Shown here: piece by piece, positions 36 through 62,139 of the stretch | How positions within the stretch are numbered: the stretch's first letter is position 1 | Layout: each line of letters starts with the position of its first letter | NCBI RefSeq assembly: GCF_036321535.1 | Contig: NC_087436.1 | Span: 42,100,001 to 42,164,000, forward strand | From: Camelus dromedarius | Taxonomy: Eukaryota | Direction: 5' to 3' | DNA length: 64,000 nt | Program-made: the position numbers and the translations under genes | Notes under the pieces: model-generated | Told to the model about the DNA's origin: nothing | Seen by the model: only the letters and a program-made list of their open reading frames with translations | The model's database searches: none

Positions 36-154
36 ATGAAAGTCAAGCTGACATCTAATGTGCTAACAGAGCAGCAGCCCTGCATTTCTCACCATGTGCA
101 AGAGGAGAGAAGCTGCACATCATGGCCTGGTGACTACTACAAGATCTCTTTCAG
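36..154 (+). CDS. EFCAB14-like gene, exon 1 (cytosolic N-terminus MKVKLTSNVLTEQQPCISHHVQEERSCTSWPGDYYKISFR)
   Basis: ATG at 36, open frame to donor CAG|GTATAT at 154, ending in phase 2 to match exon 2. The frame is also open back to the window start, so the true start may lie upstream. Confidence 0.65.
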
Positions 155-439
155 GTATATTAACTTATAACATTGATTTTTTTTCTTAAAAACCGTCATT
201 ATTAACCAAATGTATAAAAACAAAGGGATTACACCATCTCAGGGATATATTATAATTTCAAATGATAACTTCATTTTAGGTAAGATATTCAATGTATCGT
301 GCTGTGCCATTTTTCTTGATACATTCTATGTATTTTTTGTAGTTTCACTGGTCACTATAGAGAAGTATAGTTCTCCTCTTGCTAACCATCAGATAAAATA
401 TACCCTAATTAAAACAACTTGTTGTCTCTATCTCGGCAG

Positions 440-624
440 GAAACTCCTCTCAAGAAGTCATAAAACTAAGAAGTTTTCATCCTCTGATCAACTCCAAAGT
501 CTCTCTCAGGCTCTTTTTGTGCTGCTGATACTCATTTCCCAGATATTTTTAAGTTTCTTTGTCCTAAAAATTCACCAGGATGTGAGCACGCTTGAAAAAA
601 AGGGAGCATCAGCACAAATGAAAG
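440..624 (+). CDS. EFCAB14-like gene, exon 2 (basic patch, TM helix ALFVLLILISQIFLSFFVL, start of coiled coil KIHQDVSTLEKK)
   Basis: Acceptor tgtctctatctcggcag| and donor AAG|GTAAAT; 185 nt, phase 2->1; lies in ORF 210..632. The 19-aa hydrophobic stretch follows RSHKTKK and resembles the EFCAB14 TM-then-ALKEDLDALKEK layout. Confidence 0.8.
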
Positions 625-1235
625 GTAAATGAATAATGAATTTCTTGTTTGTTCTAAATCCCATTTCAGTTCTAAGTTAGAAAAGCCTTGGGTAAAAAAC
701 TAGGCTTAGGTAGCTCCACTGATTCTGCTTTAATTTTTTTGAGGCTGTAAATTTTTACAGTTCTTTTCTTTAACAGAAAAACTTTCCAAAATTTTCAACA
801 GTGGCTCAGACACCACCACCATTGTTCCCCTCCCTCAAATTCTATCTGAATAATTTTTTTCTGAGCTCTGTTGAATCATAGAGCTTTCTGCCATATATAC
901 ATATATAATATTACAAGTGTAATGTAATGTCTTAAATGTATTCATGCCTGTCTCCAAATATTCTGTGAACTATCAAAGCCACCCATTCCCAGGGACCAGC
1001 ACAAATTGTGTGAATCCCTTTATAATCTTTAAAATGGCACACACGCACAGAAGTAAAATTAAACTGAAGCTTGTCACCCTTATGTGGGCATTTGGCAAAA
1101 TATCTTTAATAAATAAACATATATATTTTTTCTTATCATAAAACTACCTCAGGCCTGCATGCTTCTTCCACTGGTAACCAGTCCCACTCACCTTCAATAT
1201 TTTTAAGATATTTTTCTGGAAAAATTCCTTCATAC

Positions 1236-1676
1236 CTCTTGAAGCTGTGTTTGCTCTTTAACATAAAAATACGTAATAACTTTTTGAAAGAGTGTTGTTA
1301 TGGCAGAAATAAGATAATACATACATGTGCATAGCGAAATTGCTGGACAACATGGCCATTTCAGTTTTAGACAATTTGGCAAGAGGGATAACAGACTTGT
1401 CATCAGGGAACTGGTGAAAAATTTGCGGTTAAACAAAATGCCAGTAAGACAGTCATTTTGTATTTACTCCAATTTCTAATATAATTATCAATATTTTAAA
1501 AACAAAACAAAAATCAAAATGCTTTGGGCCAGAGAAACTGATGTGAAAATGAATACTTAGACAATAAGCAATCGGGGCTACAAAGGCTTACCTGAGCATT
1601 AGTTTTCCATTCCTCCTCTTGGATACAATTAGATTTACAACTCATCTGAAGCTGCATTCCTTGACAACTTTATAAT
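1236..1676 (-). pseudogene. two candidate distal relic exons (1592-1676, phase 0->1; 1236-1255, phase 1->0)
   Basis: Donors CAG|GTAAGC and GAG|GTATGA with AG acceptors; phases continue the chain; the first contains stops. Confidence 0.35.
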
Positions 1677-2749
1677 CTGAAGAACCCACAGCAGCTGGCT
1701 CGTAACTCCTCCTCTAAGATTATGACTAACTAGTCTACCTGCCACCACCCCAAAAGTCATTCCCTCCCTCACAACCAGATGTCACAAAATATACCTGCTC
1801 AAAGCTTTTCAATGGCTCCAACTGCCTTCTGAGTAAAAACTAAATTTCCTTGCACAGCACTTTGTGATGTAGCTCTGCTTACTTGGCCTCAGGGCCCTGC
1901 CATCCTATTCATGGATTCTCCATGAATGCTGAAAATAAAATCTGTGGCTCCCCAAGCACACCATGGATTTTCCAAAGATACCCTTTCTTTCTGATTCCTC
2001 TCTTCCATGTTTACTACCACTTCTCATTTAGGAATCTGCTCAAATACTGACTCTTTGAAGAACCCCTCCTTGGCCATTCCCCCCTTTCTGTCCAAGAATC
2101 TGCCTTGTGGAAATGGAAGAGTGTTCCCCACGTTCGGCTGTGCTTCTTTACTCTTGCCTTCTTCACCAGACAGTAAGCTCTTGGAAGGTCAGGGTGCTCT
2201 CTTTCTCATGATTTCTCATGTCCCAGTACACGGCTTACTGCCTATCACAATAAGTATCCATCATATTCTGCGTTCATCTATAGCATACGGAGCACTCAGG
2301 AAGGACTGTCCTGAAGGGCAATAAAAAGCACACAAAAGTTCTTCACTAGCCCAAAGACATTAATAGAGAATTGACTTCTAATCTGTTTGAATCTGTATGT
2401 TCTTTAGATACAAGACCTCCAGATGAGATCTTCTAAAATGTAGAGGAAAACTGTAAGCCCTTAAGTCTAAAAAATAATGATACAGAGAGTCACCTAGGGC
2501 TAGTCACTAAGTTTGTGAATGCCAGATGACAGATTTGATGTGCATGAGTGACTAGTCACTTCTTTTTACCCTATCTGCGATAAATAAATTACCACCTCAC
2601 ACTCAGCAAACCCAAATATTGTCAATTATGCTTTTTAAAGTCTCCTTAATAAAGAGTAAACCAATTCAAAGGACCTGATTGATATGAATATATATATACA
2701 GCCAAAGAAAAATGGTAGCATTAATGAAGTTAGGAAAGGCAAGGAAAAC

Positions 2750-2990
2750 AATTGTTGAATGCTGGCAACTTGCCAGGTGTTGTCTAAAATGTCTTACAAG
2801 GTTTGAGGCCCACAACATCCTGTACCCAGTTAGGAAAATACTATCACAATCATTTCACAGATGAAGAACCTGAGGCTTAGTGAGGCTTATCTCTCACCCA
2901 AGGTCATGCAGCTAACAAAAATCAAAAAGCTGAGGTTTGGACCCAGAGAGTCAGATAGCAGTACCTGTGTGATTATCCACTCTGATCGCC
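2750..2990 (-). mobile_element. MIR SINE (similar copies at about 5330-5550, 13570-13830, 16230-16450, 19240-19460, 26100-26330)
   Basis: MIR core cattt.acagatga.gaa.ctgaggcttag...cccaaggtcatgcagcta. Confidence 0.75.
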
Positions 2991-3745
2991 TACCGTGATT
3001 CAGTACTACGCCATTACTACCTGCACTACCTGTGCTTAATAATAATGATAATAAGTTAGGTATCAACCTCTCTCTTCCCCTGAAATTATATAAGAAATAA
3101 TACTCAACACTGTCATCTTTAGGGCTAGACTTCAACACATAATTTTGAACAAGGTAGGTAATTTGGAATGCATGTGAATTTGCAATAAACATGACTGAAT
3201 TTTGAATTGCCGAGATGCCTCTAATAGTTTCAGGAAGACACGCAGCTTGCCACATTCCCTTTCTTCAACCACTGCTGCTTATTCTTCCACTTACATAGCC
3301 TTTCCTTATAATGCAAGCTGTTACAAAAACACACTACACTGCGAAGCCTGAAATATCAGCCAGTTTGAAGAAGAATATCCAGCAGGGCTCCTTTTATGTA
3401 TGTTTGAGAGTTTAATCATGTGCTGCTGGGCAGATGTTTGGCCCGTGAAGGTTACACAGTGGTCTCTTAAAGCAAACTATAAAAGTGCTTGTCCAGGGGA
3501 ACAACCCGACAGGCTGATGACGCTTCCAGCCTGGGCAGTTATTTCCACAAATCTCCATACTGTGGACTTCTTAAACCACATGACCCATTCTTATATCCCT
3601 GGGTCTATGAATTAGAAACAATGTCACTTAGGAAAAATATCTCCTTCAATGTACTTCCTCCTCTGATCTTAGCCACAGGGAAAGCCGTTAGAAGTTCCTG
3701 GCCCTTCAAGGGAATGAAAATTCAAGCAGCTTTCAAGATTTTCAT

Positions 3746-3772
3746 ACACACACACACACACACACACACACA
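3746..3772 (+). repeat. (CA)n microsatellite
   Basis: Seen directly. Confidence 0.95.
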
Positions 3773-5809
3773 AAGTATTTGATTATCTAAACTTGAGGGG
3801 TAATAAAATTTTACTGTATTCAGCTGTTTTGAAACCATTTGTTTCACTCTCTAGTTTTTGGAACTTGCCAAATATTCAATATCCAGAAAACTCTTTTGAC
3901 CTTATAAGTAGGCATGGGAATCATAATATTGACTTCTCCCAGCAAGATGTCCCCCTTGGGAGTGGTGGTGAGTTACCTGATCTGGGTGTACCACCGCAGC
4001 ACTGGACAAACCCTTGAAAAACCAAGGTTGCCAAGATGGGCAGCCCAGCATTAAAGATCATTCTGAGATTGGCATCAGGTTCATTTGTGGTTGCCTGTGA
4101 CTCAGCAGAAATTCAAGATGGACCCCGAGAATAAAGTCGGCTTTGTGGCATTTGTCAACAAAGCTATATTACTGTTTTGATCTAGATGACTCTCTAGATA
4201 AAAGAAAGATGCCTGTAAATCATACAATGGATGTAATTTCAGATGTGGTGAGCAAAAATGGCCCTGAGCAGCAAAGGATACTATGATTCTTTTTTTTTTA
4301 ATTCCCTGGATTATTAGTGTCACATCCCTGCCAATTCCTTCCCCCCATTAATTCTATCAGCTGGGAAAACACCTTTAGCATCGAGAAGGGAAAAAAAAAT
4401 CACACTTAGCCGCAGCAAGGTCCTGCTGAAAGGGACAGTGGTGTTCACTGCAGCAGTTCCTCTCTGTGGGACCTCATGCGACCCTCCAGGCCAGTTTACA
4501 AGATACAATTACTGGGCCTTATACGGTAATGAAAAAATGCATTTACAATGAGAATGTTCATCTTAAAAAAATTCAGAACACTTCCTTTTTTAATGAGAAA
4601 ATACAAGTTTTACTACTATGCTAGTTCCTACCAGCCTTAGTTTTCCCTTATGTTGTATATTTATGACTTTTTTTTTATTAACCTCAGCACTGCCTTGAGA
4701 ATCTGTTCTATTATTCTGTTCTTCCTGAAGTAAAGTATTTAGGTTGACATCAACAAGGACTGTGTACTGAAAGGCACTGACATATTAGATTCAAAAGTCA
4801 GCCGTTGTGACCTCGAGCACTGTTACTATTAGGACAAGCACAAGGCGGTACTTCTGGTCAGATACTGCTATCTGGTTACTTCTGCCCTCATTAATTTATT
4901 TGGAGGCTGGATTTTGGCTTGAAAATGTCCTACTGATTGCACATATATATATATTCAGTTTTTCCTCAAGCAAATAAAATATTCCAAATATATATAAACC
5001 TCTGATGATAACTTTTCAAACTTTGCATACCAAGTAAAATATTGTCTTATGTTGTAGCCTTTGTCTATAAGAGCAGACCATGCTGATGAATGAACTGGTG
5101 GATCTCTTCATTATTCAATCTGTTCTCTGTTGGTATATGCTTTGCTAACAACATACTAAATTTCATTTTCTCAAAGAGCACACATTGCATTTTTTACAAA
5201 TAAGTTCTAATAAAAAGAAGCTTTCATAGATTTTATTTTTTTCAAAGTGTTTTTCTTCTCAGTACTAAAGACTTAAAATTTGTTCATGGTGAAGTAGCAC
5301 TATGTAAATAATATTTGTTTACAAGGACAGGGCATAAAAGAGTGAAAATAAGTTTGCTTTGGATTCAAGCAATCTTAAGCTCCCATCGGCTATGTGACCT
5401 GGGGAAGTCACTCTCTTCTTCTGAATTCATTATCCCCATGTTCTGATAAGGAAATTAATACTAATACCTGCTCTGTAGGGTGGCTAAGAAATTCAAACTA
5501 CTGATTGGAGAGTGTCTACTGTCTGGTGTAGTAAACTCAAAGAAAAAGCAGGATTACTATTTTTAACAATATTGAAATCACTTACTTAGTTCTTTTTTAA
5601 TTTCAATGACTCTTTGTTTTTCCTCTGTGACTTTTTAGCACTTTGAGCTTTGTTTTATCCCTGGTCAGATTATTAATACAGCTTCTGGATGGCCTCTGAA
5701 AGTTACACATATATGACCGTGGCCCTTATTAATTCAGGGCTGTAGAACTATTCTCTCAGTTTTCTTTTTCTCTCTCCAAGTCTTACCATACTCCCTGGTG
5801 ACTTCATTG

Positions 5810-8067: not shown

Positions 8068-8122
8068 AACAAAACAAAACAAAACAAAACAAAACAAAAC
8101 AAAACAAAACAAAACAAAAACA
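8068..8122 (+). repeat. (AAAAC)n microsatellite
   Basis: About 10 tandem units seen directly. Confidence 0.95.
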
Positions 8123-10647: not shown

Positions 10648-11542
10648 GGTTTTTTTAAGTTTTTTTTTTAATTGAAGTACAGTCAGGTACAATGTTGTGT
10701 CAGTTTCTGGTATACAGTGTAATAGTTCAGTCATACATATATATACAGATATTCATTTTCATATTCTTTTTCACTATAGGGGACTATAAAATATTGAATA
10801 TAGTTCCCTGTGCTATACAGTATAAACTTGTTATTTATCTATTTTATATATAGTAGTTAGTATCTGCAAATATTTAACTCCTAATTTATCCCTTCATACC
10901 CACCTCCCCTCACCTCCCAGTAATCATAAACTTGTTTTCTATATCTGTGAGTCTGTTTCTGTTTTGTAAATAAGTTCATTTGTCTTTTTTATTTTTTAGA
11001 TGCCACATATAAGTGATATCATATGGTATTTTTCTTTCTCTTTCTGGCTTACTTCACTTAGATTGATGATCTCCAGGTCCATCCATGTTGCTGCGAATGA
11101 CATTATTTTATTCTTTTTTTATGGCTGAGTAGTATTCTATTGTATAAATATACCACAACTTCTTTATCTAGTCATCTATCAATGAACATTTAGTTTGTTT
11201 CCATGTCTTGGCTGTTGTAAATACTGCTGTTAAGAACATTGGGGTGCATGTATCTTTTCAAATTAGCATTCCCTCCAGGTATATGCCCACGAGTGGGATT
11301 GCTGGATGATACAGTAAGTCTATTTTTAGTTTTTTGAGGAATTTCCATAGTTTTCCATAATGGCTGCACCAAACTACAGTCCCACCAGCAGTGTAGGAGG
11401 GCTCCCTTTTCTCCACAGCCTCTCCAGCATTTATTGTTTGTGGACCTTTTAATGATGACCATTCATACAAATGGCCAATAGGCTCATGAAAAAATGCTAA
11501 ATATTGCTAATTATCAGAGAAACACAAATCAAAACTACACTG
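10648..11542 (-). mobile_element. L1 3' end (minus) with an inverted 5' segment at about 11463-11542
   Basis: ORF2 C-terminal peptides (ORFs 11190..11462 and 11258..11470), 3' UTR and poly-T; flanking repeat agccctgatg at 10638 and 11543. Confidence 0.9.
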
Positions 11543-14450: not shown

Positions 14451-14484
14451 AAGGCGGCTGCATTTCCTCTTTTTTTTTTTTTTT

Positions 14485-17275: not shown

Positions 17276-17370
17276 TATCTTTTAACAATGCCAGTGAGCA
17301 GACGGATGTAGAGACAATTAACACCCGGAAAGAACAGACGGAATCTGAATTGAAAGATTTAAGCCAGCAG
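17276..17370 (+). CDS. EFCAB14-like gene, exon 3 (VSFNNASEQTDVETINTRKEQTESELKDLSQQ)
   Basis: Strong pyrimidine tract plus aacag|, donor CAG|GTAAGG; 95 nt, phase 1->0, no stops; coiled-coil composition; NAS sequon. Confidence 0.85.
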
Positions 17371-20228: not shown

Positions 20229-20327
20229 AGAATTGCCTCCATAGAAACTATTATTTCCAGAAATACTGAAGAACAGTCTGCTTCAGCTGAGAAAAATGAA
20301 ACTGGCTTTCCTAAAGAGACAAACCAG
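20229..20327 (+). CDS. EFCAB14-like gene, exon 4 (RIASIETIISRNTEEQSASAEKNETGFPKETNQ)
   Basis: Acceptor ttttatttttcag| and donor CAG|GTACTG; 99 nt, phase 0->0, open; NET sequon. Confidence 0.8.
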
Positions 20328-21908: not shown

Positions 21909-21910
<2 letters not shown>

Positions 21911-34500: not shown

Positions 34501-35814
34501 CAACACAAAAGAAAATGAATTTTTGGCAAGCGAATGTCAGTTTCTAACCGAGCCCATTTCTAGGATGCTGTACTATGTAGAAATTGAGCCAAGTGGTTTA
34601 GTGCCAATGCAGCTACTAGGACTTAAGCCCATCAGCTGTGACTAAGGGTGAGAGGGGAAGAGTTATAAAATAGCAAGATCATTCAACTTTTTTGTGCCAT
34701 GGTAGAGACTTGTTTTCCATTCTATAGTCAGGGAGATTCTATCTGAGATGTTTTATTTTTACAGTATAATAACACAATCAAATTTGCATTATAGAAAGAT
34801 TAGAAAGGTAAGAGGAAGAAGAAAACTAACATTAATTGGACGTCATTTAACACCATAAATTAGGTAGGTGTTCTTTCATTTAATTTTAGCAGTAACCTTA
34901 TAAAGAAGGCAATTTTATTGTGTCCCATTTTGACAAGTGAGGAAAGTTTAAAATCAGAAAGCTTTAATTATCTTTTCTCTTGTCCAACAGTAAGTCTCAA
35001 AGCAGTATGCAAACTGAGAAATATCTGACTTAAGAATCCATATCCTTTTCATTAGCTAAGCTGGTTAATTGGAAGCGAGACTAGAGATATAAAGGCATTT
35101 TTGAAAATTCTTTTAATATCTCATGCCGAGTAATGAAAGGGCATATACTAGGTCAGCAGTTGTGGGGACCCATTTGGGTCCCTGAGAGTGTAACAGACAG
35201 GACCTGGGCCTCCATCAAATGTGAGAGGTAGGGGAGAGGGAGGAAGCAGGGCTGTCTCCAGCCTCCAGCTTGGGAGGAACGAAAGATGTTATAGGAGGAG
35301 AAGCAGGTTTAGAGGGAAAATAGTGAGTTCAGTTTGGGCTATTCTGAGCTTGAGATGCCTGTGTTCATCATATTGAGATGCACATTAGACAGTAGAACAT
35401 GAAAACTTAAAAATAAGAAAGAAATCAAAGCTGAAATCTTACCATTATGCTGTGGACATGCATTAGTAAATTCCCCTATATCCTCAATTTTCCTTCTCTA
35501 AATTTTCTTTCACTTTCTTGCCCTAATGAAAACACAGTTCTCCTCTATGAACCTTGCTTTCCTCGAAATGTCTAACATTGAGCTTGATTTCCCTCTTACA
35601 GCCCTTATACTCCCGGACCTACAAGTGAAGTAGGGGTCCTTTTTTCTCATGGTGGGTTCCAAGTCATTTTCCCTCCCTCTTCTGTATAAAGAAAAAAAAA
35701 AAAGCTTTAAATTACATATCTTCATAATACTCTGCCACTAGCTCTGCTCATTTCTGTCATCTACTATTCTCAAGTGTCATAGTCAGCACATGCTGCATAA
35801 CACTGCACCCCCAA

Positions 35815-36740
35815 TGTCATCAAGGAAATGCAAGTTAAAATAATGAGATACCACTACATATTTACTGGAATGGCCAAAATCTGGAACACAGACAACACCA
35901 AACACTTGCAAGGATGTAGAGCAGGAGAAACTCTGATGTATTGCTGCTGGGAATGCAAAATGGTAGAGCTACTTTGGAAGACAGTTTTGTGGTTTCTTAT
36001 AAAACTAAACATACTCTTACCATATGATCCAGCAGTTACACTCCTTGGCATTTACCCAAAGGAGTTGAAAATGTATGTCCATATAAAAATCTGCACATGG
36101 ATGTTTATGGCAGCTTAATTCATAATTACCAAAACTTGGAAGTACCCAAGATGTCCTTTAGTATATGAATGGATAAATAAACTGTAGTACATCCAGATGG
36201 TGGAATATTATTCACTGCTAAAAAGAAATGAACTATCAAGCCAGGAAAAGACAAAGAGGAACTGTAAGTTCATATTACCCAGTGAAAGAAATCTGAAAAG
36301 GCAACATACAGTATGATTTCAACTATATGACATTCTGGAAAAGGTAAAACTATAAAATCAGTAAAAAGATTAGTGGTTGCCAGGAGTTATGGGGAGGGAT
36401 GAATAGGTGAAGCACAGAGAATTTTTAGGGCAGTGAAATTACTCTATGTGATGCTACAGTGGTGGATACATGTTGTTATATATTTTTCCAAACCCATACA
36501 ATGTACAAAATTCAGCCCTAATACTAACTATGGACTTTAGGCAACAATGATGTGTCAATGTAGAGTCATACTTGTTGCAAGAAATAAAAGAGTCGTTCTG
36601 CTGAGGAATGCCAATGATGGGGGAGGCTCGACATGTGTTGGAATGGGGGGGGGTTCAATGGGAAATTTTTGTGCTTGTCTCTCAATCTTGTTGTAAACCT
36701 AAAACTGCTCTGCTCTTAAAAAAATAAAGTCTTTAAAATA
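35815..36740 (+). mobile_element. older L1 (L1M-type) ORF2 end plus 3' UTR
   Basis: ORF 35828..36118 MQVKIMRYH...LPYDPAVTLLGIYPKELK is the ORF2 C-terminus. Confidence 0.9.
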
Positions 36741-37819: not shown

Positions 37820-37992
37820 GACGTCCCCGGCTATTTGAATGCGTTCACAAACTGGGTATGTCCACTACACTGGAACTTCAGGAGATGAAAGGCAAACTCA
37901 CCCAGCTGCACCATTACATGCATAATTTGTCAGACCAGTTACTCTCTATGGAAACAGCTGTGAATTCTCTGTTCCATATTGTCAGTTCTCAG
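37820..37992 (+). CDS. EFCAB14-like gene, exon 5 (coiled coil ...MSTTLELQEMKGKLTQLHHYMHNLSDQLLSMETAVNSLFHIVSSQ); 5' frame ambiguous
   Basis: Acceptor tatttttcacctcatag| and donor CAG|GTTTGT; 173 nt. Open only when entered in phase 1, while exon 4 ends in phase 0 (see finding). Heptad-like peptide with NLS sequon. Confidence 0.75.
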
Positions 37993-40690: not shown

Positions 40691-42153
40691 CTAAGTTGCC
40701 CGAAATAAATACATACATTCTTACATTTAATCAGATTCTGAATGACCGCTTCCAATTTTCACCTTTCTCATTAGCTCACAGATTAGGCTAGGAATTTTTC
40801 CACTGCCTAATCTATGTCAGGGCAGATAATAAGCCAGAAATGTCTCGTTTTCTGGGATGTTGAGCAGATAAAAAAAGTATAGGTTATTTATCGTCTATGG
40901 CGGGGAAAGGAGACACTCTGGCTCAAATGACAAAAGAGTTTTCAGTGGTCTTCAAGTAGCAGCAAATCTCAAATACAACCTGAAACTACTTTGTTCCTCT
41001 TAGCATTTTCTTTGCCCCGCCCTATCTTGCTCAGTTGAAATCGGTATACAGAGAGACCCAATACTGTAGGAAAATGTGCCAATTAAAATTTTGCTTCAAT
41101 TAACCACACTTCAATTTAAAAAAAAAAAGAAAAAAATGTAAAAAATAAACCAACCCAACCCCTTTCATCGATTCTCGTCTCAAGTACCCCAACATTAATA
41201 ACATTTTTTTTCCCAAAACAATAGGAAAATACTCTCGCACGGTGCATGGCACACAGTAGGCATACAATAAGTATGTCTTGAATCATTGAATAAATGAATG
41301 AAAAAAATGCTGTTAATCTGGTTTTCTGCATCCTGTCCATCATGGCTCCCTTTTCAAATTTTTTTTCAATGAGCTCTTAGTCTTAACTATTAAATTTATC
41401 TGAGTTGTGAATAAGAGTCAATTTATTCCTGTTGGGTAGCACCCACACTGCTTTCTGCTGATATGAAAGCTACAAGCCTAAGGTTCTGATTTCCACTGAC
41501 ATCAGTGGCATTTCAGAAAGATTCCTTCACACAGGCTGTGGTTCAGTGCACCAGCACGAATGGCTCGTTCATATTTTTTAATTATTAAAGCACATCTGAT
41601 TATGTAATATTAGAAATTCAACCAAACATTCACTCAGCCCAACCATACCAAATTATGGGGGGAAATTCCATGATAACGAGTTCTCTTTAGGATGAATAAC
41701 ATATCTTTATAGCCTTATTTTAACATCACAAATACAATCACCATATAAGCAAGTGATACATATTTACTTGGTGATGATAGTCTGATGACCTAAGAAACAA
41801 GTATTTGCCTGCAGCAAGTTTCCAATAATCAACCACAACAAGAAGAGATTACAATGGAAAATTTTTGACATATTTGTACAACTATGTTGATAATTGTTTT
41901 AAAGGGACATGTAAGTTCATATCTCTGTATCTCTATTACTTGTATGGCCCAAGTTCATATATCTATATGAACTTACATGACTTAAAATCAAATGAATTCT
42001 TCAGTGTGGATAATTTCTTAGATTTACCTTGCTGAAAAAAAATTATACTCTATGCAGAAAAATCAAACAGCTTCAAGTAATTTTACCTGCAATCCAACTA
42101 ATGATCTCATTGTTTTTGCCTCATGTACTGCCTTTGAGATGCCTCTTTTTTAG

Positions 42154-42252
42154 CAGCTACAGAATCCTGTTGGTTCAAAAACGAATGCCTTCGAGAAACG
42201 ACTTGAAAATATCACCACCACTTTGAATAACCTTCAACAGCGCTTAGAGGAG
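42154..42252 (+). CDS. EFCAB14-like gene, exon 6 (QLQNPVGSKTNAFEKRLENITTTLNNLQQRLEE)
   Basis: Tandem tttttTAGCAG acceptor and donor GAG|GTCAGT; 99 nt (96 from the distal AG), phase 0->0. Resembles EFCAB14 KLEGMNETVSNLTQRV; NIT sequon. Confidence 0.85.
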
Positions 42253-43469: not shown

Positions 43470-44135
43470 CTTTTTTTTTTTTAATGTATAATGGACATTT
43501 AACATGGTGTTCATTTCAGGTATACAACACAATGATTAAATATGTGTATATACTGCAAAATGATCACCAGGTTAAGTCTGGTTAACATTCATCACCACAC
43601 ACAGTTACAGATTTTTTTTCTTGTGATGAGAACTTTTAAGATTTACTTTCTTAGCAACTTTCAAATATGCCATACAGTATTATTATTAACTATAGTCGCC
43701 AAGCTGTACATAAACATCTTCATGAATATTTATTTTATAACTTGAACTCTGTAATCTTCTTCACCCATTTTGCCCACACCCTCTGCCTCTGTCAACCACC
43801 AGTCACCAATCTGTTCTCTGTATCTCTGAGCTTGTTTTACTGTTGCTGCTGTTGTTAGATCCCACGTAGTGCAAGTGAGAACATACAATATTTGTCTTAG
43901 TCTGACTTATATCACTTAGCATAATGCCCTCAAGTTTCATCCATATTGTTGCAAATGTCAAAATTGCATTTTTTATGGCTGAATAATATTCCATTGTATA
44001 TATACACCACATAATCTTTATCCATTCATTCATTCATCCATCAGTAGACATTTAGATTGTTCCCATGTCTTGGGTATTGTAAATAGTGTTGCAACGAACA
44101 TGGGGGTGCAGGTGTCTTTTCTAATTAATGTTTAC
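43470..44135 (-). mobile_element. L1 3' end
   Basis: ORF 43803..44033 EWIKIMWCIYTMEYYSAIK...; poly-T at 43470. Confidence 0.9.
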
Positions 44136-47211: not shown

Positions 47212-47407
47212 GACCTGGATGATGTGTTTTTGCAGCTTTCCCAACTGAAAGACAATCTGTATGTTATGGAGAATACATTGAATATCACCAGGACAGAATA
47301 TTTAAATGTATATACATCACCAACTCAATCCTTCCAAGAAAAAGAAAAGAAATTTTATACTACAGGACTGCCATATGTCATGTCTAGTCCAAATTCTGAC
47401 ATTTCTG
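47212..47407 (+). CDS. EFCAB14-like gene, exon 7 (DLDDVFLQLSQLKDNLYVMENTLNITRTEYLNVYTSPTQSFQEKEKKFYTTGLPYVMSSPNSDIS)
   Basis: Acceptor tttgctttctag| and donor CTG|GTATGT; 196 nt, phase 0->1; same frame as ORF 47224..47445; NIT sequon. Confidence 0.85.
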
Positions 47408-49819: not shown

Positions 49820-50520
49820 TTTTTTAAATTGAAGTACAGTTGACTTACAATGTTTCTGGTGTACAGCATAGTGATTCAGTTTTATATATATATAATTTTT
49901 CATATTTTTTCATTATAGATTATTATAAGATATTGAATATAGTTCCCTGTGGTATACAGTAGGGTCTTGTTGTTTATCTATTTTATATATAGTAGTGTGT
50001 AGCTGCTAATCCCAAATTCCTAATTTATAACCCTCTCCCTTTCCCCTTTGGTAATTGTAATTCTGTTTTTTATGTCTGTGGGTCTGTTTCTGTTTTGTAC
50101 TTAAGTTCATTTGTATCATCTTTTTAGATTCCACATATAATTGATGTCATATGATATTTATCTTTCTCTGTCTGACTTACTTCACTTAGTATGATAATTT
50201 CTAGGTCCATCCATGTTGTTGCAAATGTCATTATTTCATTCTTCCTTATGGCTGAGTAGTATTCCATTGTATATATATACCACATCTTCTTTATCCACTC
50301 ATCTGTCAGTGGACATTTAGTTTGTTTCCATGTCTTAAGTATTGTAAATAGTGCCGCTATGAACATTGGGGTGTAGGTATCTTTTTAAATTAGAGTTCCC
50401 TTGGGATATGTGCTCAGGATTGGGATTGCTGGATCATATGATTACTCTATTTTTATTTTTTTAAGGAAACAGTATGGAGATATTGTTTTTCATAGAATTT
50501 ACATTCTTACCAACAGTAGG
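49820..50520 (-). mobile_element. L1 3' end inserted into L2-derived sequence
   Basis: ORF 50124..50366 MFIAALFTI...EYYSAIRKNEI; flanked by near-identical agaggaa(c/t)tgactttt. Confidence 0.9.
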
Positions 50521-52060: not shown

Positions 52061-52162
52061 CTGTTCCAGAGCCAGCATCACAAGATCCTAAAGATGTGGT
52101 AGATTCTGGAATATTAGAAGAGAAGCCCAAGATAATCATTTCATTCATAAAGAATCTTACAG
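52061..52162 (+). CDS. EFCAB14-like gene, exon 8 (AVPEPASQDPKDVVDSGILEEKPKIIISFIKNLT)
   Basis: Consensus donor CAG|GTAAGT; acceptor ends at 52060, with an in-frame alternative at 52069; phase 1->1, open; NLT sequon. Confidence 0.85.
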
Positions 52163-55300: not shown

Positions 55301-56202
55301 AAAGGTCAGTGGCTTTGACAACACCAAGCAAATATTATACTAATTTGTCCGATGGCCCATTCACTATTTGGAAAAACCTTAAAGGCCACTAATCCAACCT
55401 CCTTAAAAGAAACTTATATTCAAGTGTAACTGTCCATAAATCTTGGCCAAGCAGCTGTCAACCTAAGCATGAAGTAGTGACCCCAAATAGAACGTCCTCT
55501 AGGAATGATATCACTCACGTTCTCTAAAGTGAGTGTGAAATGAAGTCTGTGATACCTTTGGTTTGTTGAACATCAATGATATTTGCATATCATAGTTTGC
55601 ATTTTTTACTTTACTTTCAGAAGAAAATTGTGGGTATGATTTGGAGAGAAGAAACTTTGGATTCTCTCCTGGTCGAAAGCGCTTGAACAAAACTTCTAGC
55701 GGGAGGAGCAGTGGAGGATGTGGCTGAGGTTCCCTTGGAGCTGACATTTAAATCACTTTTCATTGCACAGGCGTGATGCCAGTCTCAGCTTTCCCAGCGC
55801 AGCTACTGCTGTTCAGCCAGCTCTGTTATCTTAAATGCCCAGGTTTGGCAGCTTATCAGACAGCTAAAGCCTGTTTTTTTAACCTTCATATAAATGCATC
55901 CTTGGACTTAATATGGAACCAAACGTAATTCAAAATATCAATAGCTATACTTGTAGTTTTGAATCTATTAGATGATTCTACCATTCTCAGCCTCTATGGG
56001 AAAAAAAAAAAACTCAAAGCTGCTCGCATCCCCAGCCTTTTTTATTTTTTTCTCACTTTCTCCAAAATTAAGTCAGAATCGAGAAAAAAAAAGTTTAGTT
56101 TCCCTTCCTCCCTGAGGAGTGTCACTTATTGGCAGCTGCAGGGATACAACAGGCCCATTGAGGTCACACAAGCTAATCAAACCTGAGTAAAGTGTTAGAA
56201 GA

Positions 56203-56276
56203 CACAACATTATAAACTGACTATACTTCAATAAAAAAAAAAAACCTTTAAAAATAAAGAATAAATAAAATTTTTT
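56203..56276 (+). mobile_element. extremely 5'-truncated L1 (about 30 nt of terminus plus A-rich tail)
   Basis: cacaacattataaactgactatacttcaataaaa between 15-bp repeats taaagtgttagaaga (56188, 56277). Confidence 0.8.
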
Positions 56277-58452
56277 TAAAGTGTTAGAAGATACATGTAG
56301 ACGCTTCCTGGAATTTTCCTGAAAACTTTCTGAACTTTATAGCCTAACTCGATTCACCCACTGGCAGAGAAGTCATTGTATCCGAGAAGAGAGCTCACTA
56401 TAGAATTAATCGTCAGATGTCACAATAGCTTCATTTCCCACACGTGGTTCCTTCAACCGCCCTGAGGTTGGGTTTGCCCAGCCGTCCCTTCCGTGCTCTG
56501 GGGAAGCTTTAGCAGTCACAGCTGACCTGATGCTGGGACCCGGGTTTGGTGTTTGGAATACAAGCTTTTGTGAAATGGAGATGAGTAAAAACCGTAATAA
56601 CTGCTAAAACAGTGCCCGAACTGTAGGAAGGAAACAAGCGCTAACTGGATGATATGCATGGCGAACTTTAAATTCCCTAAAAATTGTAATATGGAACATT
56701 CAATCGTTATATTTCTTGTATATTATTGTCATTGCCATAGTGATTCCTCTTTTTCTCATGGACAACGTCATGTCGTAATCTCTGTACGTGCGTTTAACCC
56801 ACGACTGCCTAGATAGTCATAAAGCTCACTCCGTCCCTGTCATTCTTGAGTACTCTCTCAGTCCCTATTCCTCGGCATTTGTTTTTCTTTATCATGTTAA
56901 GTAAAAACTAATGTATAAATTATTGCTTTTGCTAAATCCTTTCATTACCTGAACATACTCGTTCATATTTTCAGACGAAAAAATGTTCATTTCTTTTCCT
57001 TCAAACTAGCAAAGAAGTTGTCACAACTATCACACTACTTTGCAGATTTCCTAAGCCAAGCAAAAGTAAACTTAAGGGTGTTATTGTTTGGTCTTTTTCT
57101 ACAGTTTAGCAGGATAGAAGGGCCTTTACATTACATCAAACGCTCTGTAATGCAGGAAACTTGACACCAGCAGTGGTGAGAGCTGTTCTGTAGGGCCAGG
57201 TATTCGGCACTGGGGTCCGGACACGGGCGTCCCAGGAGAGACGCTGCACAGCTAATGCGGAGCGGACTGTTTGGCGGTGATCAACTGAAGAGCCAAAGAG
57301 AAGACTGTTGTCAGAAAATATTTTTCCTTAGTATGGTGGTCATCTCTCCTTCGCCACATACACTCTTGTCAGAACAAGCTACTGGCAGTTTCTTAATATG
57401 CTCCACTCCTCCACAAGTTAACGCCGTTGACCGTAGGATCATGCCCTCCAAAAATCACCTCTAACCACTTCTCTGCCTGGTGCATTTCTGTCCATTCTTT
57501 ATAATTCAACCAAACCAAGCCCTGAGTGGAACGCTCCCTCGTTCTCCTCTATGCCTCAATGGCACATTGTCTGCACCTACATTACAACAGATATTCCACT
57601 GTTTGCTGAAACGTCTTAATTGCTGATTTTGTCTCCTTGAAGTCAGGGTCTATGCCTTCTTCACCCTTGTATTCTCAGTGTCACATACCGTGCCTGGCAC
57701 TTTAGAAACACAGAAAACAATGTATGATTGTGCTTTAATAAAGGCAGTACTTAGAGCAGTGAGATGGAGAGGATAATAAGAATACTGACAAAGGGATGTT
57801 ATTTAGTGGCCTTATAAATGGAGGAACAACATTTGATTATGTATAAATTAAAATAAATGTTGTAGATGACATCCAGCTTAGCAGAAGAGACGTCCGTATG
57901 TTCAGAATTGACAGCAAAAAGAGGGGGCTACTTTTGATGTAGCATGAAGAAATGTTAGAAAAATAGGAGGTAGGACGTGAATACAAGCAAATAAGTAAAG
58001 GATTTGGGATAGAAAGATCATTAGAATTTAGTCAGATGGATGTTTTTCGTAGAGAATAAAGACCAATAGATATATCAAAAACTGTAGTATACATAAAGAA
58101 GAATATTCCATTAAAAGGCTTATATTAATCAATGAGGCAAATAGAAAACAATAAAAACACTGAGTTTATGGTTTACTTATAAAACACCATGAGAACACAG
58201 ATAACAGGATAACAAGTATAGGAAATGATCAGATAATTCAGAGTAGAATGAAGAGACATGATAAGCTGGTGTTAAAAGAAAGGTAAAAATTGACTGACTT
58301 GTTAAAGAGATGTGCAGCAAAATGACCTTGCTGTGTCTGAGGGACAGAGACCCTAAGCCGGTGGGGACGAAGTGCTGTGTTGGAGGGTGGTCGATGTTTG
58401 GGTTGACACCAAAAATCTGAGTTGAAACATGCAAAGTCTTTCATTTCCACAG

Positions 58453-58629
58453 ATCTTCAAATCTTTTTCTATGGTGCTGACCACAATGCCAACGGCTATT
58501 TGACTTACAGTGAGATAGAGAGCCTCCTAGGAGAAGAGACACCAGCACAAGAGCAACTAGAGCTATTTGATGCTGACAACAACAAGACGTTCTCCTACCC
58601 TGAACTTATCAGAGCATTTGGACTGACTG
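58453..58629 (+). CDS. EFCAB14-like gene, exon 9, two EF-hands (DLQIFFYGADHNANGYLTYSEIESLLGEETPAQEQLELFDADNNKTFSYPELIRAFGLT)
   Basis: Acceptor tcatttccacag|, phase 1. Loops DHNANGYLTYSE and DADNNKTFSYPE fit the 12-residue EF-hand pattern. Colinear with the EFCAB14 C-terminus as recalled (DLQDLF...GKLTYQEI...FDSDGDGRYSFLELRVALG). Donor CTG|GTAAGG, or read-through to a stop at 58659-58661. Confidence 0.92.
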
Positions 58630-59535
58630 GTAAGGGGCTTCAGGGGCTGGAACACTGGTGAGGCTGGGGGACAGGGAGCCTGGAACAATGTTCTGTGTAA
58701 CAGCCCCAAACTAAGCAATCCACAGCTTAACATTTTTAGTTCACAACTGACTCCAAAAGCAAAGATTATAAGAAAACCTCGAAATTATCAGACAGAACAT
58801 CCCATTCTGAATGCTGTGATAAATGGGAAAACAAGTCATTCAGTTTAATTGCATGAATAGAGGGTTTCCTTAACCTCTAACCAGAAGGGAGGTTAAGGAA
58901 AGGCACAGTGATCTGTCATCCTCTGTACTTGCTACAAGGATTTTAGGATGATACTCTTAAGGCTGGAACTTTAAAGCTCAAGTAGTATAGAGCAATGAGG
59001 TGAAAAGAAAACTGGAAGGCCACTATCCGTGAGATAGAATAAAAAGTGACAGCAATGTAAGTGACATGAAATCGTACAGAATCTAAAAACACCTCTTAAA
59101 TTGTACTATTTCCCTCATCTGCTTCTTTTCTATTTAGTTTTTATACACTCTGTTGTGGAAGGAATTCCACATTTACAATAAATACCTAGGAGTAGTTTCT
59201 TAACCAGTGATGTTAGGAACAGCAGGAGGAAATACGGACAGCTATAAAAAGGAAGTGTTTGATCAATAAACTGAGAAAATTTCAATGGGGAAAAAAAGTA
59301 AAAGAGAAACTTTTCCAGATCTTCATTCTTTTGAAGAGATATTAGCGCTAACATCGGAAGCTGATGGGTTAATAGAACCCAGTTGGCCATGAGACAATAT
59401 TCCATGTAATCAAATGCTAGATTTAATCTATTTACTTTCAGAATCAGAGGATAATAAATTATTAAATTGCTGTCATTTCCTTCTTGCTTGAAAAAATGAA
59501 CAATAGCAGACAGGTGTTTTGCATTTCTCCATCTC

Positions 59536-59562
59536 CACACACACACACATATATATACACAC

Positions 59563-59602
<40 letters not shown>

Positions 59603-59606
59603 ACAC
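59536..59606 (+). repeat. compound (CA)n(TA)n(CA)n microsatellite
   Basis: Seen directly. Confidence 0.95.
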
Positions 59607-61954
59607 GCTGATGCTCCCTGTCCCTCCAGTGCTCTGGAATCACATCTGTTCACGCTGAAAATGGCATCACTGAAACATCCATGACACGATAGGACCCACA
59701 CGGCTGTCGATGCCTGGATATTGCCAAAGTCTTGCATTTGCCCAATCCCGTTGACTTCCCTGCATCCCATATTCAGGACCTTTAAAGGTGTTTGCTTGGT
59801 TTTATTGCTTCCCACCTTCATTTTGGTGAAAACAACAGCAACAACAATTTAAAAAAATAAAGACAATAACAACAAAAAAGATGGGCTATTATTTAAAAAA
59901 CAAATTGCACAGTTGGAGGAACCATTCATCCAGAGCATGAGAGCCATTCTGAGGTAGTTTTTGATCTGAAACAGCTGCCTCCTTCCCCGGGTGTCCTTGC
60001 TTTGCTCTCTGTCTGCTGCTGTGGGGAAGGTAAGTGCTCTGCCAACCTGGCTTGAGAGAGGGATTTGCCTGCCTGCCACCTGTCAGGCCTGGGCCTTTCT
60101 CTGGCTCTGCCTGACAGCTGGCTGCATTTCCAGCATCTTCTGTTAATATCAGGGGTACGGGTGACGCTAAATCAATGAGAGTTAGAGAACCAGAGATACA
60201 ATGCTGCCTGGTGCAGAAGATCCTTTTTGGAGCCCTAGTAATGAATATAGGCAGGCTCCCACCGGAGAAAGATAAGGTCTCTGTTTGTACAAACCTGTTG
60301 TATAAAAATGTTAATTGACCAAGTGGGAATTAAGAAAGGGTACACACTGCTTGATAGTTTAAAGATCACTAAGCTACGCCCCCAGACCAGGTCACAGGGT
60401 CCCCTAACCAGAGGGCCAGGCGGCGCCCTGCCCAGTGTAGCGTTCCTTCCAAACCTGCAGAGAAGCACCATCTGCACATTACTGTTTCCGATGGACCTTC
60501 CATCCTGAGTGGCATTCAGCTCGTGCAGACAATAGATTTTTCAACACAGTTGAACATTTTCTCAATCTGGCATTCCGTAATTTGGAACACTTGAACCTCC
60601 AGTTGTGTTTCCACACTCCATTTAAGAAACAGAGGCATTGTTAAACCCATAAGCACAATCTATACGCCGTGTTTCTGGAAATGGTAGGGCAACTTAGAAA
60701 TCACTGAACAGTAGAAAACCCAGAAGAAGAAACCAAAAGCTTGGAAACAAGAAGAGGGGAAGCAGGAAAGGGAGGAAGGCAGGTTGTACAATATGTCACA
60801 TGAACTCTGGAATCACACGCAATCCTTAAGTTACTTGTGCTTTCACAAATGGCCAGACTGACTTAGCCATTCTCTTGGATCTGTGAATCTACCCAGAGGT
60901 ACGTGAGTCAGTTTCTTCCTCGCTCTCACTTCTTGAGACCCCACATTGAGAAACTGTCAGTTGAATTCATTGCAAGAGATGTTACTCATAACTAGGATCT
61001 AGTTTAAACTTCTAAATCTCAAACTGGTTTTTATTCTAGAATAAATAAGAAGAGGGGAGTTCCAGAAAGAAGAATATACTCAGAGTAGTAGCTTGATTTT
61101 ATTTTACAATAAGTTCATCCTGTTTCACAATATTGTAGCAAGAAGTGTCACCGAGGTACGTCTGACTTAGATGCTAAAAGTCTCTAGTTCTTTTGAACAT
61201 GATTCGGTGGCAAAGAGTTTTTTGTTTCTTCAAATAGACTTTAAGTCCGTAATACTGTCACTCCTTTAAAAAAAAAAGCAGAGTAAGAATTTTTGGTTTC
61301 AGTTTTTAGAATTTAATTCTAAAAAATTGTTTAATATAGCTTAGATGCTAACTACACACATGCACACACACAGGTTAGTATTAGCATTATGTATTTTTTC
61401 TCACACATATATAATTTGTATTTGCTTTTTTTTTTCTATTGGACAACGCTTGAGCCAGTTGTTTACATTGGCATATTTAAGTACCTAGAACCACCTTCTT
61501 GTTCATAAGTTGAACTTGTTATATCCAGAGGGAGTCAGAGTTGGAAGCAGAATTGATGATTTGTGTGATTTCACAGCCTTGGGCTTTTCTAGACACCTGG
61601 TCTCTACCAGTTCCTTCGATGTGTGAACAAAATGCATAGACGTCACCCAGAAACACAACATCACACATCATCGTTAACATGGAATTTAATGTTACATGGT
61701 ATTTATCTGGTATGTTTATACTCAAAGTTACCATTTTCTGCTAAAAGTAAGGAATACCATCACAGTTCCATGAGGGCATCTAAAGCAGAATTAGCATAAA
61801 TATAGAAAATTCTTCCTTTCTAACATTTTAGTTATTTGACATTGTATCGCAGTGCTAAGAGTAACAGAGCCTTCAATATCAAAATTATGTTTGTATCTAG
61901 GATCTCAATAAGAAACTTTTTTGTTATGTTGTCTTTTACTTATTTTTGACCTAG

Positions 61955-62139
61955 ATGGAAAATTGATCATAATATTAGGACTGACTCATGGCTTAGTGGA
62001 CATTTCCTTTTCAAAGTGTGGATATTATATTGAATTTAAAGTAACTCTGCCTTAGTAATAAGAAATGATCACTTATTGCACAAAATAGGGTCACTGAGAG
62101 TAAAAACTAATTGTAGATAGAAACTAACATAGCAATAAA
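61955..62139 (+). CDS. candidate terminal exon of the EFCAB14-like gene (DGKLIIILGLTHGLVDISFSKCGYYIEFKVTLP*, stop at 62053-62055) with poly(A) signal
   Basis: Long pyrimidine tract plus cctag|; open in phase 1; AATAAA at 62134-62139. A competing acceptor lies near 59137. Confidence 0.4.

Follow-up and report, generated by a model that had tools for sequence, protein, structure and literature searches.

The 64,000-nucleotide stretch of dromedary DNA analysed here (hereafter the window; contig NC_087436.1, positions 42,100,001 to 42,164,000) probably holds the greater part of a real gene, single-copy and with introns, that represents in camel a vertebrate sister family of EFCAB14 which as yet has no name. 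The gene corresponds to RefSeq LOC135319230 of Camelus dromedarius, labelled "uncharacterized protein", and its product, predicted by automatic annotation and without prior study, is expected from its sequence to be a membrane-anchored calcium-binding protein. It lies on contig C1, with NDST4 on one side and UGT8 on the other, and has nine or more introns across about 70 kb; residues 1-138 of protein P0002 match the window at 100%. A search of the whole camel genome with the horse orthologue P0006 returned nine matches, of which eight are exons at this locus and one is the final EFCAB14 exon on contig C14 (E 2.6e-6); no further copies of the gene appeared. Orthologues are already labelled "EFCAB14-like", and the gene is best described as an unnamed member of a known, uncharacterised family. 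An earlier reading made from the DNA letters (the sequence-only reading), which proved largely right, knew of no named gene that matched, and indeed no characterised one does, public labels being only "uncharacterized protein LOC..." or "EFCAB14-like".

Exon Structure and Reading Frame

Exons were rebuilt from tblastn searches with orthologous proteins and from inspection of the sequence, and all lie on the + strand:

36-154, +, E1r, alternative first coding exon (exon 1 of the sequence-only reading); 119 nt, end phase 2; identical to the N-terminus of NCBI isoform X3 (P0219)
440-624, +, E2, juxtamembrane region, transmembrane (TM) helix and start of the stalk; 185 nt, phase 2 in and 1 out; tblastn with horse P0006 E 5.9e-19; AG and GT sites
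17276-17370, +, E3, polar helical stalk; 95 nt, phase 1 in and 0 out; tblastn E 4.2e-10; splice sites seen
20229-20327, +, E4; 99 nt, phase 0/0; tblastn E 1.7e-11; splice sites seen
37820-37992, +, E5, relic of a cassette exon; 173 nt; matches mole P0012 (E 9.7e-15) and platypus P0014 (E 2.1e-11)
42154-42252, +, E6, start of the heptad segment and a conserved N-glycan sequon; 99 nt, phase 0/0; tblastn E 6.7e-12
47212-47407, +, E7, conserved stalk motif, second conserved sequon and start of the linker; 196 nt, phase 0 in and 1 out; tblastn E 4.0e-25
52061-52162, +, E8, linker and lead-in to the EF-hand domain; 102 nt, phase 1/1; tblastn E 3.4e-12; splice sites seen
58453-58629, +, E9, EF-hand pair; 177 nt, phase 1/1; tblastn E 8.6e-27; the intron before it splits the Asp of DLQ in phase 1
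58630-58661, +, read-through past the E9 donor; 10 extra residues and a stop; C-terminus of NCBI camel models X1-X3 and of P0217
61040-62139, +, candidate terminal exon; acceptor, then 2 nt and a stop, giving ...LTE* as in orthologues; AATAAA at 62134-62139

The horse protein P0006 matches seven of these exons, E2, E3, E4, E6, E7, E8, and E9 (tblastn, E 4e-10 to 9e-27). Nine GT-AG exons forming an open chain of about 415 residues had been proposed from the sequence. The splice sites are as proposed, with a GT donor in all nine exons and an AG acceptor in all eight internal ones, and the nine lengths total 1245 nt, or 415 codons; but with E5 kept the chain contains 16 stops, the first at codon 188, a difficulty already flagged at exon 5 in that proposal. 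Without E5 the chain is open over 357 codons, and its whole length coincides with the first part of NCBI isoform X3 (P0219, 367 aa) without a single difference. The measured end phases are 2,1,0,0,(E5 breaks),0,1,1,1, in agreement with the proposed series except at the seventh value, which had been given as 0 and is 1.

The conserved first exon (35 codons and 2 nt, phase 2) lies about 6 kb 5' of the window, at -6043..-5937 (G000:C1:42093957-42094063). Together with it, the eight conserved coding exons form an open chain of 353 codons. The exon first taken as exon 1 is thus a real exon of isoform X3 and not the conserved one; tblastn of orthologous proteins found no counterpart of E1r in any orthologue, and E1r appears, from these comparisons, to be a camel-specific alternative first exon.

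Regarding E5, the frame conserved in it and its AG acceptor are out of step by one base, so that inclusion shifts the frame. It is skipped in all three NCBI camel isoforms listed (X1-X3) and in the full-length horse and squirrel models, which makes its loss old and shared. E6 has a tandem acceptor (NAGNAG) that allows a start at either 42154 or 42157, and a single Gln here distinguishes isoforms X1 and X2. At the 3' end, a stop at 58659-58661 terminates isoforms X1-X3 and the C. ferus model P0217 by read-through of the E9 donor, and horse (P0222) and squirrel (P0003) have annotated models that end in a similar way. Neither the conserved exon 1 nor the terminal splice to ...LTE occurs in any of the three listed NCBI camel isoforms; the putative terminal exon at 61040-62139 is one of nine candidates from a pattern scan. 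In camel, the ancestral cassette exon 5 is dead and skipped, and annotated transcripts begin at alternative first exons and finish by read-through at the E9 donor. In one run on record as RNA, all 14 sampled words of exon 7 were present, although these could come from DNA or pre-mRNA.

Predicted Protein

The product is laid out as about 55 N-terminal residues, a single TM helix, a mostly helical stalk with a heptad segment of about 55 residues, a low-confidence linker and a C-terminal EF-hand pair resembling a calmodulin lobe. A TM segment, a heptad-rich stalk and two EF-hands had been read from the sequence. The first and last of these stand: the 19-residue Kyte-Doolittle maximum is 2.77 at residue 60 (residues 60-78), and both EF loops are present. 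In the stalk, heptad periodicity is strong only at about residues 167-225 of the 353-codon chain that starts with conserved exon 1 (matched by 1 of 500 shuffles). In the AF2 model, helices span residues 54-107, 117-151, and 171-234, the TM region encoded by E2 is a helix with pLDDT above 90, and the EF domain has pLDDT 91-95.

The camel EF loops, D-H-N-A-N-G-Y-L-T-Y-S-E and D-A-D-N-N-K-T-F-S-Y-P-E, each have 12 residues with ligands at positions 1, 3, 5, and 12 within a paired helix-loop-helix fold, the second with a Pro at position 11. Across the alignment, the EF1 loop is canonical at positions 1, 3, 5, and 6 in 20 of 25 rows, and in all 24 rows the EF2 loop opens with Asp (position 1) and closes with Glu (position 12). 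The loops thus retain the usual Ca2+ ligand positions, from which Ca2+ binding is predicted. Foldseek on the AF2 model returned lobes of calmodulin and troponin C (probability 1.00, best E 6.7e-3). P0219 scores under the Pfam gathering cut-offs for EF-hand_7 (PF13499; 21.4 against 30 bits), EF-hand_6 (PF13405; 21.3 against 25), and EF-hand_1 (PF00036; 19.1 against 25.4), as EFCAB14 itself (P0208) likewise does for the Pfam EF-hands. Among other conserved features, the sequon of E6 is kept in 23 of 25 rows and that of E7 in 20 of 24, while the tail motif, also encoded by the camel upstream exon, is seen in 16 of 25 rows with a range from chimaera to horse.

Relationship to EFCAB14

The colinear C-terminus shared with EFCAB14, which the sequence-only reading had claimed, was recovered by BLASTP of the horse paralogue against Puma EFCAB14 (26/63 identities, 41%, over the last 63 residues, E 2e-12), the same search giving a colinear weak match of the TM segment (E 0.017). 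It was recovered again by hhalign of the two families (probability 98.9%, E 2.4e-17, 76 columns). The alignment is colinear from the TM segment to the C-terminus, and the nearest ESM Atlas clusters are EFCAB14 (0.91, 193/256 features). The phase-1 intron within the Asp of DLQ, also claimed there, occurs in both camel genes; the intron phases are 2,1,0,0,0,0,1,1 in camel EFCAB14 and 2,1,0,0,0,1,1,(1) in the window gene, which has one additional 3' intron. The gene therefore shares with the EFCAB14 family in the broad sense a homologous EF-hand pair, an N-proximal TM segment with a long helical stalk, and the exon-intron structure.

It is very improbable that this is an unrelated membrane protein with a generic EF-hand pair and a convergent architecture, even if significance against EFCAB14 is independently reached only over the last 76 C-terminal columns (hhalign), whole-length identity is 23-24%, and the backbone of the short-domain tree is unresolved. 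Against convergence stand the intron in the same Asp codon and the matching phases (2,1 on the two sides of the TM exon and 1,1 leading up to the EF exon), the colinear positions of the TM segment and EF-hands, an acidic tail LL ... DSD ... EEF in both proteins, and the Atlas neighbours. In addition, names were checked for 20 of the 47 profile matches: the 18 that are named are all EFCAB14, "EFCAB14-like", or "uncharacterized protein LOC...", two are nameless, and calmodulin or any other EF-hand family name occurs in none of these 20.

That the gene is instead the EFCAB14 orthologue, or its retrocopy, is refuted, although one horse entry is labelled "EF-hand calcium binding domain 14" in UniProt and Ensembl. 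Camel EFCAB14 is separate (match at G000:C14:37452862-37453041, where NCBI camel EFCAB14 P0091 is 100% identical), and since it lies on another contig the window gene is a paralogue; with its introns kept and a single copy, the window gene is also no retrocopy. The gene fits EFCAB14 proper neither by locus nor by clustering, mammalian EFCAB14 forming its own clade (support 100/99) in the short-domain tree, with the window gene outside. Both genes are found, by name, in seven species: Camelus dromedarius, Vicugna, Sciurus, Urocitellus, Ictidomys, Talpa, and Condylura.

Family Range and State of the Camel Copy

A profile search of 1.84 billion representatives found 47 proteins at E<=1e-3, 11 of them at E<=1e-30. 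Members occur in mammals (camel, horse, squirrels, moles, sugar glider, platypus, and echidna) and in other vertebrates (turtles, a caecilian, salamanders, frogs, coelacanth, lungfish, Amia, skates, and a chimaera). In skates, members are found as complete ORFs of 427 aa on Logan contigs just 1.7-1.9 kb long, which implies spliced transcripts. Motifs of the N-terminus and stalk that are specific to the paralogue reach skates and chimaera, so the duplicate is old, as the sequence-only reading had proposed in calling it ancient.

The camel copy might nevertheless be decaying, either as a recently formed unitary pseudogene or as a relic that is transcribed but has no function; its open frame would then reflect a recent loss of constraint. 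We consider this unlikely. The broken frame of exon 5 would fit decay, but skipping of that exon is old and common to the horse and squirrel full-length models. Annotated camel transcripts bypass the conserved exon at the start and the conserved splice at the end; yet the frame through eight exons (353 codons) is free of stops and frameshifts, and the splice sites of these exons remain canonical. Otherwise invariant residues are substituted in the camel tail (N14H, F22I) and near the membrane (C58S, F61L), and the EF-hand exon differs between camel and vicugna at 6 of 58 residues, which looks fast, whereas none of the EF-hand ligand positions has been lost. Counted over sites that four other species keep invariant, unique changes number 9 in camel, 5 in horse, and 15 in squirrel: the camel copy shows no excess divergence over horse or squirrel. 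On the side of decay, several exon 9-like ORFs (P0027, P0031, P0035, and P0046) have a frameshift or a shortened EF2 loop, and primate, murid, carnivore, ruminant, and bat proteins are absent among 17 matches, so that loss in other mammals seems common. To our knowledge, human 4q26, the orthologous NDST4-UGT8 interval, contains no annotated protein-coding gene.

On the reading of an intact camel gene, a broader history can be put forward tentatively, and we think it rather less likely than its alternatives taken together. An EFCAB14-like ancestor may have duplicated before the split of cartilaginous and bony vertebrates, one duplicate being later lost in human, mouse, and most placentals; the survivor may have been kept by selection, as a Ca2+-dependent, adaptor-sorted receptor cycling in the secretory or endocytic pathway. 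Selection would, on this same tentative footing, have acted in camelids, equids, squirrels, moles, a marsupial, monotremes, turtles, amphibians, and lobe-finned and cartilaginous fishes. If this is true, the function escaped study because model species lack the gene.

Proposed Topology and Mechanism

Topology, glycosylation, Ca2+ binding, trafficking, and oligomerisation of the product are all predicted. The conserved sequons lie in the stalk, and for this reason a type II orientation is proposed, in which the N-terminus would be cytosolic and the stalk and EF-hands would face the lumen or the outside of the cell. In the tail, E-K-Y-x-L-L followed by acidic D-S-D-x-E-E-F may act as a dileucine/tyrosine adaptor signal with a casein-kinase-type acidic cluster, and could keep the protein moving among trans-Golgi, endosomes, and cell surface. 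Self-association of the stalk is probable. For its part, the tethered EF-hand pair would take up Ca2+ where calcium is high, in the lumen or outside the cell, and its binding of a ligand would depend on Ca2+. The mechanism as a whole, combining adaptor-sorted cycling, stalk self-association, and Ca2+-dependent ligand engagement, is plausible while falling somewhat short of an even chance. As for EFCAB14, no function is described in the titles and abstract openings of the part of its literature consulted.

Comparison with Known Systems

The closest known system is EFCAB14 (KIAA0494). Both proteins have a short acidic tail, predicted to be cytosolic, and one TM helix in exon 2 with a phase-2 intron before and a phase-1 intron after it; both continue with a long helical stalk from phase-0 exons and place the EF-hand pair after the intron in DLQ. 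They differ in locus (EFCAB14 on C14, the window gene on C1 between NDST4 and UGT8) and over most of their sequence, as the overall identity given above indicates. The stalk of the window gene is shorter by two phase-0 exons, its extra phase-1 intron lies past the EF-hand exon, and a 2-nt terminal coding exon follows in orthologues. It has conserved motifs of its own in the tail (E-K-Y-x-L-L) and in the stalk (L-Q-N-R-L-E-E-G-L-D..F-L-Q-I-S-Q-L-K-D-D), and its rate of evolution is higher (camel and horse share 82% identity, compared with 89% for EFCAB14 of camel and Puma).

The "EFCAB14-like" and "uncharacterized LOC" models of RefSeq and UniProt, such as horse P0006/P0222, Ictidomys P0232, platypus P0014, Latimeria P0025, and Callorhinchus P0040, are orthologues, with like exons, motifs, and domain order. 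The camel models depart from them in their first exons, in having no exon 5, and in ending by read-through; in cartilaginous-fish members the EF1 loop is degenerate.

With regard to fold, the last 65 or so residues are predicted to resemble a single lobe of calmodulin or troponin C (Foldseek TM score up to 0.66 on the target), and the best sequence relative in the PDB is calmodulin-like protein 5 (E 4.8e-4). Unlike calmodulin and troponin C, the window protein has one lobe, which sits on a membrane stalk and by prediction lies on the luminal or exterior side, and identity to them is only 18-26%. MCFD2, the CREC family, and the EF-SAM of STIM1 are luminal or extracellular EF-hand proteins of the secretory pathway. 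Searches in this analysis found no sequence relationship to them, and the likeness is one of idea, that of an EF-hand pair at work where calcium is high, for instance to bind cargo or ligands under Ca2+ control. These proteins are soluble or type I, whereas the window protein is predicted to be type II with a coiled-coil stalk.

Exon structure of the camel gene

The window spans G000:C1:42100001-42164000. The window gene, LOC135319230 (EFCAB14-like), lies in a genome of 2.3 Gb and 171 contigs, and the GC content of the window is 34-41%. The exons of the gene were rebuilt by querying a database with the EF-hand exon, which retrieved 'uncharacterized protein' models from camel and squirrel, and by placing these on the window with tblastn; a later set of probes comprised horse, mole, sugar glider, platypus and salamander proteins, together with direct reading of the sequence. 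The protein models of LOC135319230 align to the window at 100%.

Exons of the window gene (window positions unless a contig, G000:C1, is named)
36-154, + strand: E1r, first exon of the sequence-only reading
440-624, + strand: E2
17276-17370, + strand: E3
20229-20327, + strand: E4
37820-37992, + strand: E5 (173 nt)
42154-42252, + strand: E6
47212-47407, + strand: E7
52061-52162, + strand: E8
58453-58629, + strand: E9
G000:C1:42093957-42094063, 6 kb upstream of the window: conserved first exon used by orthologues (35 codons and 2 nt, ending in phase 2)

The nine exons had been proposed as GT-AG units, and GT donors are indeed present at 9/9, with AG acceptors at all eight internal exons. Their summed length agrees with the expected protein of about 415 residues (1245 nt, 415 codons), but the chain that includes E5 is not open and contains 16 stops. 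The first of these falls at codon 188, and the conserved frame of E5 lies one base off its own acceptor. When E5 is left out, the same chain gives 357 open codons identical to the start of the NCBI camel isoform X3 (P0219, 367 aa), the end of which is a read-through of the E9 donor adding ten residues. The end phases found here are 2,1,0,0,(E5),0,1,1,1; only the seventh value differs from those proposed.

Exons E2-E4 and E6-E9 match the horse orthologue (P0006, 356 aa) with tblastn E-values of 4e-10 to 9e-27, while E5 matches a mole protein (1e-14) and a platypus protein (2e-11); such matches put the exons far beyond chance. No counterpart of E1r was found in any orthologue by protein-to-window comparison. 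The conserved first exon matches the N-termini of horse, squirrel and platypus, and its chain with E2-E3-E4-E6-E7-E8-E9 provides 353 open codons, 82% identical to the 356-aa horse protein. As for the end of the gene, a pattern scan gave nine candidate terminal exons, and the candidate at 61040 yields the E-stop ending of the orthologues.

A tandem acceptor (TAG followed by CAG) can be found at 42151-42157, at exon 6, and explains the difference of one Gln between isoforms X1 (404 aa) and X2 (403 aa). Both isoforms have their ATG start inside the E1r-E2 intron and run straight into exon 2 (window 210-439). Since the resulting 76 extra residues are absent from all orthologues, they probably reflect a retained intron or an error of annotation. 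The camel models can be corrected in two respects: none of the three isoforms listed uses the conserved first exon, and exon 5, a cassette exon, is dead. The 'uncharacterized LOC135319230' could take the name EFCAB14-like. Elsewhere in the introns, open frames at 11190-11506 (-), 35801-36118 (+), 43803-44033 (-) and 50124-50384 (-) resemble C-terminal fragments of LINE-1 ORF2, and look like ordinary repeat remnants. Microsatellites of the (CA)n/(TG)n type are present at about 3750-3790 and 59530-59620, showing up in the ORF list as poly-His-Thr and poly-Cys-Val frames.

Genomic neighborhood

Synteny, proposed as a check on the gene, places it between NDST4 and UGT8, and exons of both kinds can be found in the flanks of the window (L006, L007 and L008, in local coordinates).

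Exons flanking the window
L008:3065-3454 (-), equal to G000:C1:42167065-42167454: last coding exon of UGT8, about 3 kb past the window end (Pfam UDPGT, E 2.8e-22)
L007:1300-1665 (+): NDST exon, about 58 kb upstream, with a sulfotransferase domain (E 1.9e-15 to NDST1, PDB)

The published human UGT8 reverse primer has 0/21 mismatches at L008:2773-2793, just downstream of the UDPGT exon, and this exact match identifies the neighbor as UGT8, whose orientation relative to the EFCAB14-like gene is tail-to-tail. For NDST4, the human forward primer has 2/18 mismatches at L006:4903-4920 (+), 45 kb upstream of the window; the other two human primers gave no match with three or fewer mismatches. As NDST4 lies upstream on the same strand, the locus corresponds to human 4q26. 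In the portion of PMC3692540 that was consulted, only UGT8, NDST4 and miR-577 are stated for this interval, and human would therefore seem to have no annotated protein-coding gene at the corresponding place. EFCAB14P1 was considered as a human counterpart and rejected, its position in the excerpt used of PMC6733812 being human chr1 at about 35.59 Mb and not 4q26.

Predicted protein

The transmembrane segment that had been proposed is recovered as a single one at about residues 60-78, with a 19-residue hydropathy maximum of 2.77. The proposed heptad-rich stalk is sustained in part: the periodicity is strong, being equalled by 1/500 shuffles, but is confined to about residues 167-225 of the 353-codon chain. 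In the AlphaFold2 model (25-sequence alignment, mean pLDDT 63.6), a disordered N-terminus precedes a helix at 54-107, with pLDDT >90 across the membrane part, and further helices at 117-151 and 171-234 are followed by a low-confidence linker (229-284) and a confident EF-hand pair at about 290-355 (pLDDT 91-95). Foldseek gave no match at E<=1e-3; all of its matches were lobes of calmodulin or troponin C (prob 1.00, best E 6.7e-3). A complex prediction with two copies of residues 50-360 scored 0.01, which gives no answer either way.

Both EF-hand loops expected from the sequence-only reading are present in the family alignment. Positions 1, 3, 5 and 6 of the EF1 loop are canonical in 20/25 rows, the others being four degenerate cartilaginous-fish rows and one truncated row, and the EF2 loop opens with Asp (position 1) and closes with Glu (position 12) in 24/24 rows with residues. 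Two N-glycan sequons in the heptad segment are kept in 23/25 and 20/24 family rows; the remaining four camel sequons are not conserved in that alignment. Conserved sequons are generally a sign of a luminal or extracellular location, which is the placement predicted for the C-terminus. In the N-terminal tail, E-K-Y-x-L-L followed by D-S-D-x-E-E-F is found in 16/25 rows that range from chimaera to horse, and the camel upstream exon also carries it; the nine rows without it are N-terminally partial or have alternative starts. Motifs of the E-K-Y-x-L-L type can act as dileucine/tyrosine adaptor signals, and together with the acidic cluster this may represent a putative cytosolic sorting tail.

Distribution of relatives

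When 1.84 billion representatives were searched with a profile, 47 proteins came up at E<=1e-3, 27 of them also passing E<=1e-10 and 11 passing E<=1e-30. According to the names drawn from three cluster look-ups and one word-based search, mammalian relatives can be found in camels, vicugna, horses, squirrels, moles and desman, sugar glider, platypus and echidna, and other vertebrate relatives in turtles, caecilian, salamanders, frogs, coelacanth, lungfish, Amia, skates and chimaera; invertebrate 'EFCAB14-like' proteins are weaker matches of the profile search. In agreement with the proposal that no named gene matches, all relatives are labelled 'uncharacterized protein LOC...' or 'EFCAB14-like'. 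In skates the relatives are complete ORFs of 427 aa, and the Logan contigs carrying them measure 1.7-1.9 kb, a length that implies spliced transcripts if the gene has many exons.

The 17 hits of the word-based search included no protein from a primate, murid, carnivore, ruminant or bat, an absence that is weak evidence as only the 7999 candidates sharing most words were scored. A genome-wide search revealed no further copies in camel. Single-exon ORFs resembling E9 were observed in P0027, P0031, P0035 and P0046, with a frameshift close to the 5' end, a truncated frame or an EF2 loop that lacks one residue; their sequences hint at decayed copies in other mammals.

Functional state of the camel copy

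The camel copy is probably a working paralogue. Its eight-exon frame is intact, with canonical splice sites throughout, and at sites invariant in four other species camel has 9 unique changes where horse has 5 and squirrel 15, which represents no excess of rate. It is unlikely that the copy is instead decaying, despite several features in that direction: exon 5 is dead, though the horse and squirrel models skip it too, some otherwise invariant tail and juxtamembrane residues are changed in camel, a Pro occupies position 11 of its EF2 loop, 6/58 EF-hand residues differ from vicugna, and the NCBI camel isoforms listed avoid the conserved first exon. When exon 7 was sought among sequencing runs, 12 containing it were listed, 1 of them on record as RNA.

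Relation to EFCAB14

No paper containing 'EFCAB14-like' was found in the literature; by titles and abstract openings, none on EFCAB14 and paralog is about a paralogue and, among the EFCAB14 matches listed, none has the gene in its title. Pfam has no family for the protein, with sub-threshold EF-hand matches only, and the PDB no solved structure of any close relative. The gene comes as no surprise to a specialist: public pipelines have models of it, and several orthologues already bear the 'EFCAB14-like' label. The window gene is thus a member, as yet unnamed and unstudied, of a known family. EFCAB14, itself functionally uncharacterized, has a second ancient vertebrate family member without a gene symbol, with its own strongly conserved stalk motif and putative cytosolic sorting motif. 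This sister gene, apparently absent from the usual model mammals, is a natural comparison for the role of the predicted membrane-tethered luminal EF-hand module, and is a further instance of patchy gene loss in placentals.

Camel EFCAB14 was located on a separate contig (C14) with an invertebrate family member as probe, and its last exon was read; the window gene is thus distinct from EFCAB14 itself, as had been claimed. Bona fide EFCAB14 proteins were also retrieved (422 hits, 120 of them listed). The claim of a colinear C-terminus holds, the horse paralogue having 26/63 identities with Puma EFCAB14 there (BLASTP, E 2e-12) and a colinear 9/39 match in the transmembrane region (E 0.017). Profile against profile, the two families align with 98.9% probability (E 2.4e-17) over 76 columns, and a permissive alignment is colinear from the transmembrane segment to the end, the part beyond the 76 columns having no independent significance. 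The nearest ESM Atlas clusters are EFCAB14 (0.91, 193/256 features), and both genes occur, by name, in seven species.

The gene tree, built on 96 columns of the short domain, places mammalian EFCAB14 in its own clade (100/99) but leaves the deep branching unsettled. In this tree, invertebrates are separate (84/87), camel groups with horse, squirrel and mole (94/91), and coelacanth is misplaced on a 42/72 branch; the only non-mammalian EFCAB14 sequence available to it was an Amia model carrying paralogue-type motifs. Within camel EFCAB14, a stalk exon of 64 codons at L011:3258-3446 (+), a part of that locus, corresponds to Puma EFCAB14 residues 267-329 and has an in-frame stop; it is skipped in the annotated camel and vicugna proteins.

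The intron phases are 2,1,0,0,0,0,1,1 in camel EFCAB14 and 2,1,0,0,0,1,1 in the window gene, and in both the transmembrane exon is bracketed by phase-2 and phase-1 introns. The phase-1 intron splitting the Asp of DLQ, stated for EFCAB14 in the sequence-only reading, enters the EF-hand exon in both camel genes. The tail of EFCAB14, LL ... DSD ... EEEEEF, likewise resembles the LL/DSD acidic tail of the window-gene family.
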